64,000 nucleotides of DNA from Escherichia coli (GCF_003334255.1 NZ_QOWU01000010.1), one strand, 5' to 3'; shown: positions 21,417-22,820, numbered from the stretch's first letter. Translations and numbers: made by a program. The notes: generated by a model from the sequence alone, not told the origin.

Positions 21417-22820
21417 ATGAATACAGTACGCAGCGAAAAAGATTCGATGGGGGCGATTGATGTCCCGGCAGATAAGCTGTGGGGCGCACAAACTCAACGC
21501 TCGCTGGAGCATTTCCGCATTTCGACGGAGAAAATGCCCACCTCACTGATTCATGCGCTGGCGCTAACCAAGCGTGCAGCGGCAAAAGTTAATGAAGATT
21601 TAGGCTTGTTGTCTGAAGAGAAAGCGAGCGCCATTCGTCAGGCGGCGGATGAAGTACTGGCAGGACAGCATGACGACGAATTCCCGCTGGCTATCTGGCA
21701 GACCGGCTCCGGCACGCAAAGTAACATGAACATGAACGAAGTGCTGGCTAACCGGGCCAGTGAATTACTCGGCGGTGTGCGCGGGATGGAACGTAAAGTT
21801 CACCCTAACGACGACGTGAACAAAAGCCAAAGTTCCAACGATGTCTTTCCGACGGCGATGCACGTTGCGGCGCTGCTGGCGCTGCGCAAGCAACTCATTC
21901 CTCAGCTTAAAACCCTGACACAGACACTGAATGAGAAATCCCGTGCTTTTGCCGATATCGTCAAAATTGGTCGTACTCACTTGCAGGATGCCACGCCGTT
22001 AACGCTGGGGCAGGAGATTTCCGGCTGGGTAGCGATGCTCGAGCATAATCTCAAACATATCGAATACAGCCTGCCTCACGTAGCGGAACTGGCTCTTGGC
22101 GGTACAGCGGTGGGTACTGGACTAAATACCCATCCGGAGTATGCGCGTCGCGTAGCAGATGAACTGGCAGTCATTACCTGTGCACCGTTTGTTACCGCGC
22201 CGAACAAATTTGAAGCGCTGGCGACCTGTGATGCCCTGGTTCAGGCGCACGGCGCGTTGAAAGGGTTGGCTGCGTCACTGATGAAAATCGCCAATGATGT
22301 CCGCTGGCTGGCCTCTGGCCCGCGCTGCGGAATTGGTGAAATCTCAATCCCGGAAAATGAGCCGGGCAGCTCAATCATGCCGGGGAAAGTGAACCCAACA
22401 CAGTGTGAGGCATTAACCATGCTCTGCTGTCAGGTGATGGGGAACGACGTGGCGATCAACATGGGGGGCGCTTCCGGTAACTTTGAACTGAACGTCTTCC
22501 GTCCAATGGTGATCCACAATTTCCTGCAATCGGTGCGCTTGCTGGCAGATGGCATGGAAAGTTTTAACAAACACTGCGCAGTGGGTATTGAACCGAATCG
22601 TGAGCGAATCAATCAATTACTCAATGAATCGCTGATGCTGGTGACTGCGCTTAACACCCACATTGGTTATGACAAAGCCGCCGAGATCGCCAAAAAAGCG
22701 CATAAAGAAGGGCTGACCTTAAAAGCTGCGGCCCTTGCGCTGGGGTATCTTAGCGAAGCCGAGTTTGACAGCTGGGTACGGCCAGAACAGATGGTCGGCA
22801 GTATGAAAGCCGGGCGTTAA
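21417..22820 (+). CDS. fumC: Fumarate hydratase class II (467 aa)
   Basis: 467-aa [36 protein letters not shown]... with the GSSxMPxKxN signature of class II fumarase. Confidence 0.95.

Follow-up and report, generated by a model that had tools for sequence, protein, structure and literature searches.

A conserved hairpin inside tus as the probable 3′ stem-loop of fumC mRNA at a spacer-less convergent junction in Escherichia coli

The convergent genes fumC and tus of Escherichia coli end in interlocked stop codons with no spacer between them, and a conserved hairpin that lies just inside the tus reading frame, on the strand transcribed from fumC, probably forms the 3′ stem-loop of a fumC mRNA terminated by Rho. 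We consider it very likely that the junction combines three elements: interlocked stops without a spacer, a fumC 3′ end formed by the hairpin together with Rho, and a tus gene autoregulated through TerB. The locus was analyzed within a window of 64,000 nucleotides of E. coli DNA (GCF_003334255.1, NZ_QOWU01000010.1), to which all coordinates refer unless K-12 is named. The window runs reverse to K-12 numbering (K-12 coordinate = 1708005 minus window coordinate), and the locus corresponds to the rstB-tus-fumC-fumA region as annotated in E. coli K-12.

The Stop-Codon Overlap

The fumC coding sequence (21417–22820, + strand; RefSeq b1611) encodes a class II fumarase of 467 amino acids and ends in a TAA at 22818–22820. 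Facing it, tus (22817–23746, − strand; RefSeq b1610) encodes the replication terminus site-binding protein of 309 amino acids, starting at an ATG at 23746 and ending in a TAA that is the complement of 22817–22819. Both stops are contained in the tetranucleotide TTAA at 22817–22820, giving a convergent overlap of 4 nt. A sequence-only reading of this DNA had reported the overlap at these positions and proposed comparison with the annotated K-12 genome. The claim is exact to the base in the sequence, the ORF list, and RefSeq: NC_000913.3 places tus at 1684259..1685188 (+) and fumC at 1685185..1686588 (−), with the identical 4-nt overlap and the same stop positions. The 2.6 kb around the junction are 100% identical to K-12 MG1655 and are present in 5425 of 5426 complete E. 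coli genomes, and a 121-nt junction segment (22780–22900) occurs at ≥95% identity in 5424 of the 5426.

That one stop might have been mis-assigned, making the overlap an annotation artefact, has next to no probability. Both ORFs reach these stops and RefSeq concurs; among the matches listed, the homologues of 79 species terminate no more than a few codons away. FumC matches the solved structure 1fuo_A end to end over residues 1–467, and Tus likewise matches 1ecr_A over residues 1–309. Since both proteins coincide with crystallized chains from the first to the last residue, and the crystallized proteins have precisely these C-termini, the stops are not artefacts of annotation.

As a type of event, the overlap is unremarkable: convergent genes overlap in this way more often than in any other. 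A survey of 58 prokaryotes found a modal overlap length of 4 bp, with CTAA, TTAA, CTAG, and TTAG as the convergent tetramers and 58 convergent overlaps in E. coli (PMC2174442). The fumC/tus pair comprises two genuine coding genes on opposite strands whose stops fall inside one tetramer of this set, and its geometry is identical to that of the surveyed class; related genera carry the equivalents TTAG (−4) and TGATTA (0) or overlaps of −11 or −14. Within the window, the K-12 annotation contains 10 convergent gene pairs, with gaps of 436, 19, 2, −48, 38, 24, −4, −4, 225, and 33 nt, three of which are overlaps (−48, −4, −4). A second TTAA stop pair is formed by folM/ydgC at 26307–26310. The stop overlap and the TerB arrangement are already present in annotation and literature, and the earlier description of the site as a known-type arrangement serving as a coordinate check was right: the locus is annotated, the overlap belongs to a recognized class, and the pair already appears in a published excludon list. 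In this respect, the overlap verifies coordinates at a textbook locus and leaves its biology unchanged.

Conservation of the Missing Spacer

A species scan using one genome per species retrieved at least 80 Enterobacteriaceae loci, with Tus at 69–98% identity. Among the matches listed, fumC is convergent on tus, tail to tail, in 79 of 80 species. The distance between the stops in these 79 listed loci ranges from −14 to +35 nt, with values of −14, −11, −4, 0, +10, and +35. A distance of −4 nt (TTAA or TTAG) is found in Escherichia, Citrobacter, Salmonella, Kosakonia, Kluyvera, Phytobacter, and Pseudocitrobacter; 0 nt in Enterobacter, Lelliottia, and Leclercia; −11 nt in Klebsiella and Raoultella; and −14 nt in Superficieibacter. 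Two loci have +10 nt, and Pluralibacter gergoviae has +35 nt. Selection on TTAA itself was considered and rejected because the overlap geometry varies by genus, and the tetranucleotide is without special function of its own. As judged from this comparison, what the Enterobacteriaceae conserve is the missing spacer, which leaves no room for an intergenic terminator, and not TTAA.

A Conserved Hairpin within the tus Reading Frame

Folding, covariation, and codon bias point to a 13-bp stem-loop with a 16-nt loop at 22832–22873 on the + strand (fumC sense). The stem, CAGGUGCAGCCGU / GCGGCUGCGCCUG, starts 12 nt past the fumC stop, and the element covers positions +12 to +53 relative to that stop. 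It sits in tus codons 292–305, with one arm encoding Q292-A293-Q294-P295 and the other R302-L303-H304-L305, and is followed directly by AGGUUUAUAA. The hairpin has a folding energy of −25.6 kcal/mol (z −4.9), and none of 200 shuffles folded equally well.

The window and the 80 listed Enterobacteriaceae loci were aligned; these are related sequences, and the statistics that follow carry no correction for phylogeny. Standard pairs occupy 94.4% of 1040 pair cells (80 distinct sequences), compared with 19–46% for controls slid by 1–3 columns. Six of the 13 pairs change on both sides, and 0 of 500 shuffles reached the observed value on any of five measures. RNAalifold, run without a supplied structure, predicted the seven central pairs on the fumC strand only. 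This strand preference is also apparent in the pairs themselves, as 132 G-U cells on the fumC strand compare with 14 on the tus strand, paired cells amount to 94.4% versus 83.1%, and one invariant U-G pair on the fumC strand is an A-C mismatch on the tus strand. Consensus folding energies were −12.6 kcal/mol for the fumC strand and −2.4 kcal/mol for the tus strand, on which the hairpin was not predicted.

Such a structure could be a by-product of Tus protein constraint and codon usage, devoid of RNA function, and this explanation draws on the fact that one arm encodes the invariant R-L-H-L of a conserved IPRLHLY motif, as well as on the kinship of the sequences, which inflates shuffle-based statistics. 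Codon choice argues against it. The Arg302 codon is CGG in 58 and CGA in 15 of the 80 distinct sequences (73/80, 91%), whereas at the remaining Arg positions of tus in these genomes CGC and CGT make up 75% and CGG and CGA 21%. Ala293 is encoded by GCG (68) or GCA (11) and never by GCC or GCT, the pair that accounts for 51% of Ala codons elsewhere in tus, meaning that half of the usual Ala codons are excluded. These preferences at Arg302 and Ala293 support selection on pairing as read from the codons. The two 8-codon windows with the lowest synonymous diversity in the whole of tus, residues 288–295 and 298–307, correspond to the arms, whereas the loop codons 296–301 show the diversity of the gene average. 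Substitutions that alter residues of the variable arm have synonymous counterparts opposite: where Pro295 gives way to Ser, Thr, or Ala, the third base of the Arg302 codon matches, and Gln292 is replaced by Glu together with a Leu305 change from CTG to CTC, the latter in at least four genera. The restriction of the structure to the fumC strand by its G-U pairs likewise speaks for an RNA element, and we regard the by-product explanation as very improbable.

An Rfam scan of 19000–27000 at E ≤ 1 returned only a chance snoRNA match, and a known RNA family was not found at the junction. A second hairpin at 22884–22907 is a perfect palindrome in some genera; it is absent from the RNAalifold consensus and hence is not claimed here. 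Within Klebsiella and Raoultella, 6 of 11 sequences have one disrupted pair in the first hairpin (columns 34–57). In Klebsiella indica, the hairpin persists despite a transporter gene that now lies between tus and fumC.

Outgroup Loci and the History of the Junction

Representatives of more distant Tus clusters, placed on their contigs, served as outgroups. In a Moellerella-like relative (L089, Tus 47% identical), tus and fumC are convergent across a 74-nt spacer that holds a bidirectional intrinsic terminator, AAGCCATCT...AGATGGCTT followed by T7. The tus 3′ codons of this locus show no GC hairpin even though the RLHL codons are kept, a further observation that disfavors the by-product explanation. 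A second locus (L090, Tus 43% identical) has a 141-nt tus-fumC spacer with a canonical intrinsic terminator, ACGGAGCC...GGCUCCGUUUUUA. A third (L086, Tus 58% identical) carries a canonical terminator directly after the tus stop and a degraded hairpin inside tus with 10 of 13 pairs; its contig ends before any fumC. A lineage with Tus at 36% identity has no fumC beside tus.

The protein alignment shows Tus I300, R302, L303, and Y306 to be invariant, while residues 292–295 vary outside the Enterobacteriaceae (QAQP, DAQP, KSKA, KAKK, NSQT, and TPAK). These few outgroup loci suggest that the convergent pair is old and originally had a spacer with a normal terminator, which the Enterobacteriaceae would have lost. 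They further suggest that, after the loss of the spacer, the variable Tus stretch may have been shaped to pair with the conserved RLHL codons.

Transcription past the fumC Stop and the fumC 3′ End

Because the spacer is missing, fumC transcription enters tus antisense, and the 3′ end of either transcript must form within the other gene. Transcriptomic data bear on the fumC strand in particular. Adams et al. (2021) mapped a bicyclomycin-sensitive Rho termination region, labeled 'antisense, tus', 290 nt past the fumC stop, at window position 23110 on the + strand (K-12 1684895, − strand; PMC7815308, Supplementary file 2). Reads upstream/downstream were 83/16 in untreated cells and 36/39 with bicyclomycin, the Rho score was 5.62 (p 5.8e-7), and such regions were mapped with 800-nt windows; an equivalent entry lies antisense to folM, a partner in the other TTAA pair (PMC7815308). 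In principle, the Rho region could stem from an antisense transcript that starts inside tus instead of from fumC read-through. In the ExcludonFinder compilation, tus-fumC is one of 165 convergent MG1655 pairs whose transcription overlaps in at least 50% of 58 RNA-seq samples; folM-ydgC, speG-ynfC, clcB-bidA, and tqsA-pntB, likewise located in the window, are entries as well (PMC12288877). Overlap of the fumC and tus transcripts is thus found in the literature, through Table 1 of PMC12288877 and through the Rho region. The statement of the sequence-only reading that fumC transcription must read into tus antisense holds on these three grounds, the missing spacer, the Rho region antisense to tus, and the excludon listing, and can be refined: the read-through would be bounded, passing the conserved hairpin and probably being stopped by Rho well before TerB.

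A composition scan identified a C-rich, G-poor stretch on the + strand at 22900–22977 (C/G 1.56), a candidate Rho loading region whose assignment as a rut site would follow from base composition, and a second C-rich stretch at 23060–23177 (C/G 1.4–1.5). Curated Term-seq 3′ ends within 300 nt of the junction (K-12 1684700–1685299) are absent in three growth conditions, and neither tus-strand 3′ ends nor Rho regions are recorded inside fumC (PMC7815308). A mapped 3′ end for the junction was not found in the text of PMC6131387, PMC6061677, PMC9023263, PMC11092163, and PMC12207403 or in the PMC12288877 supplements, and PMC10349824 gives only a line on fumC that is uninformative on its 3′ end. On the tus strand, the 160 nt after the tus stop fold no better than shuffles (z −0.2), and RNAalifold returned no conserved structure (consensus energy −3.2).

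The pattern on the fumC strand resembles one described by Dar and Sorek (2018), in which Rho-terminated E. coli mRNAs have sharp steady-state 3′ ends right after stable stem-loops that lack a U tract (PMC6061677). The stem-loops shield the RNA from PNPase and RNase II, and rut sites follow them directly (PMC6061677). The fumC hairpin shares with them its place near the stop, its stability without U-rich sequence after it, the C-rich region downstream, and bicyclomycin-sensitive termination further on. It differs in being encoded in another gene's reading frame, where it is kept by synonymous and compensatory changes, and in that no curated steady-state 3′ end is recorded at its foot (PMC7815308). 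Because the junction fits the Dar and Sorek pattern, Rho release followed by trimming back to the hairpin is the preferred reading, and the hairpin would add one more case to a class of element already described. A polymerase leaving fumC would first transcribe the GC-rich stem-loop written into tus codons 292–305 and would then cross the C-rich stretch, to be released by Rho within ~300 nt if the mapped Rho region reflects fumC read-through. 3′-Exonucleases would trim the RNA back, and the hairpin would most likely mark and protect the mature fumC 3′ end.

The main competitor to this reading is that the hairpin is itself a classical Rho-independent fumC terminator, with the downstream Rho signal mopping up read-through. 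Its stable, GC-rich stem of 13 bp lies 12 nt after the stop and occupies the place that canonical terminators hold in more distant relatives, the bases UUUAU appear three bases after the stem, and TransTermHP-type predictions place terminators inside the neighboring gene for 146 of 165 convergent excludons, a general figure that is not specific to this pair (PMC12288877). The other hallmarks of an intrinsic terminator, a short loop and a U tract, are not found, however. The loop comprises 16 nt, and T runs after the stem reach a maximum length of 3 in 58, 2 in 20, and 1 in 3 of the 81 sequences, about four of the eight post-stem bases being U throughout. A total of 20 species tolerate a change from AAA to AAG, which shortens the U run. 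A consensus promoter/terminator scan of 21000–24200 found no terminator at the junction on either strand, missing the hairpin; in contrast, fumA, 1.5 kb upstream, ends with the textbook terminator CCGCCC-TTCG-GGGCGG followed by T7. The lack of a Term-seq 3′ end at the site (PMC7815308) and the bicyclomycin-sensitive termination 240 nt further on also count against intrinsic termination. By these sequence features, the hairpin at 22832–22873 is no canonical intrinsic terminator, and we judge this alternative to be unlikely overall, though with some claim to consideration.

Understood as the 3′ stem-loop of a Rho-terminated mRNA, the hairpin neatly illustrates how a transcript-end signal can pass from an intergenic spacer into a neighbor's reading frame, where it is kept by rare codons and compensatory substitutions, some of which alter Tus residues 292–295. 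It bears on how compact convergent genes terminate transcription. Recoding or refactoring of the region would be affected as well, because synonymous changes in the last 20 tus codons may alter fumC expression. In the literature covered, the original 1986–1991 sequence papers aside, we found no description of evolutionary evidence for a fumC 3′ hairpin inside tus.

Convergent Transcription and Regulatory Coupling

As an entry among the convergent excludons compiled for MG1655 by ExcludonFinder, tus-fumC shares with that group a 3′-end signal inside the partner's transcription unit. The regulatory meaning of excludons rests on mutually exclusive expression and RNase III processing; neither was found for this pair in the papers covered, and its listing reflects overlapping transcription. 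The junction might nevertheless be a selected excludon, in which strong fumC induction lowers Tus through convergent transcription and RNase III cleavage of the duplex. Consistent with this proposal, the pair is in the published convergent list (PMC12288877), the spacer-less synteny extends to 79 of 80 Enterobacteriaceae species among the matches listed, the fumC transcript runs antisense over at least the last ~290 nt of tus, and tus, being weakly expressed and self-repressed, should therefore be the sensitive partner. Against it, the geometry drifts from −14 to +35 nt, more distant relatives carry an insulating bidirectional terminator, and Rho confines the antisense RNA to the 3′ third of tus. 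Because of this drift and the insulating terminator of distant relatives, the overlap looks tolerated, not required, and selection for an excludon appears improbable.

A more far-reaching proposal holds that spacer loss coupled the two genes, such that fumC induction under oxidative stress or iron limitation lowers the already scarce Tus, with the hairpin and Rho setting the reach of the antisense transcription and shielding TerB. This is a speculative reading to which we assign little probability. If it were true, polymerases and antisense RNA would traverse the last third of tus, the resulting drop in Tus would make the replication fork trap looser during stress, and the hairpin and Rho site would protect TerB from transcription that approaches on its permissive side.

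TerB and the tus Promoter

Bound by Tus, TerB arrests replication forks that arrive from one side only. This 23-bp fork barrier lies at 23757–23779 on the − strand (5′-AATAAGTATGTTGTAACTAAAGT-3′), identified as an exact 23-mer and by its match to the consensus, at the coordinates given by the sequence-only reading. A single exact match to the 16-nt Ter core consensus AGNATGTTGTAACTAA occurs in the window, at 23760–23775 (−), where 0.05 would be expected by chance, and the site includes the G at position 6 of the 23-mer. The orientation of the sequence would have its non-permissive end face rstB, such that TerB would block clockwise forks.

TerB ends 10 nt upstream of the tus ATG and overlaps the tus promoter (23779–23807, −), which consists of a −35 box TGGTCA at 23802–23807, a 17-nt spacer, and an extended −10 element TGC-TATAAA at 23779–23787. 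The published constitutive tus promoter is TGGTCA-17-TATAAA (PMC3946193); the consensus promoter scan of 21000–24200 missed it because its −10 box ends in A. Position 23779 is at once the final base of the −10 box TATAAA (23779–23784) and the first base of TerB, an operator therefore overlapping the core promoter. Because of this shared base, the transcription start would fall within TerB, and the promoter would be covered by bound Tus. Passages in PMC8707476 and PMC8347550, both citing Roecklein et al. (1991), state that Tus represses its own promoter and that TerB overlaps it. The earlier claim that TerB overlaps the tus promoter region is borne out by the exact 23-mer, the shared base, and this published autoregulation, and the position of TerB between the −10 box and the start codon is that of the published system. 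Bound Tus would thereby block its own promoter and act as a barrier to clockwise forks, while Rho termination 650 nt before TerB would keep fumC-derived polymerases off its permissive side.

Among the matches listed, every one of the 80 Enterobacteriaceae loci has a Ter core ahead of tus, and in 76 of 80 this core ends 9–13 nt before the tus start codon. Compared with the Ter sites beside tus in Enterobacterales fork traps, that of K-12 shows no difference, whereas the spacing is 21–30 nt in Kluyvera and Intestinirhabdus. The Moellerella-like relative, too, has a Ter site beside tus, there at a spacing of 1 nt.

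Other convergent gene pairs in the window

A second pair of convergent genes with stop codons interlocked in a TTAA tetranucleotide, folM and ydgC, lies at window 26307-26310, where the four nucleotides provide the stop codons of both genes. Folding revealed a stable structure at 26336-26418 (-40.4 kcal/mol, z -3.5), located inside folM and 3' of the ydgC stop codon, and Adams et al. (PMC7815308) place a region of Rho termination on the strand opposite to folM, at K-12 coordinate 1681110, corresponding to window position about 26895. Two further close convergent pairs are clcB/bidA, with an annotated overlap of 48 nt (41434-41481), and speG/ynfC, separated by a gap of merely 2 nt (51259-51260); both are entries of the published excludon list (PMC12288877).

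Hairpins and terminators near fumC

The 142-nt spacer between fumA and fumC contains the fumA intrinsic terminator (21279-21305), which displays the textbook form of CCGCCC-TTCG-GGGCGG followed by seven T residues; this palindrome was picked up by the consensus terminator scan on the minus strand only. Within tus, a second, weaker hairpin was identified on the fumC strand at 22884-22907, inside tus codons 281-288. In several Enterobacter and Citrobacter species, this hairpin is a perfect 9-bp palindrome (GATGCTGAA...TTCAGCATC), and it is absent from the RNAalifold consensus.

Rearranged and divergent tus loci

Examination of homologous loci from other genomes revealed several departures from the fumC-tus arrangement. 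At the Klebsiella indica locus, fumC is replaced by an MFS-type transporter gene (locus positions 3999-5375) that is convergent to tus and lies 65 nt beyond the tus stop codon. Despite this replacement, the conserved 13-bp stem-loop within the 3' part of tus is kept intact, with one A-U pair compensated. The complete genome of E. coli FDAARGOS_1251 (NZ_CP069445.1) carries, at locus positions 4042-4056, a natural deletion that starts approximately 13 nt past the fumC stop codon and takes out TerB, the 3' part of rstB, and the whole of tus; as all of tus is covered, this strain is without the Tus fork-trap protein.

In a Moellerella-like outgroup locus, the Ter site adjoining tus (2980-3003) ends just 1 nt ahead of the ATG, and the 23-bp site therefore overlaps the tus start codon. 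Upstream of tus, the place of rstAB is taken by a small ORF encoding a CdiI-like domain and by a very large ORF, which spans 1323 aa up to the edge of the locus and runs past it. Three independent assemblies of the Tus lineage at 58% identity (L086, L087, and L088) all break off within a palindromic terminator, AAAAGCCAGGTCTGCAGACCTGGCTTTTTTT, which is found directly 3' of the tus stop codon, in the last 30 nt of each locus.
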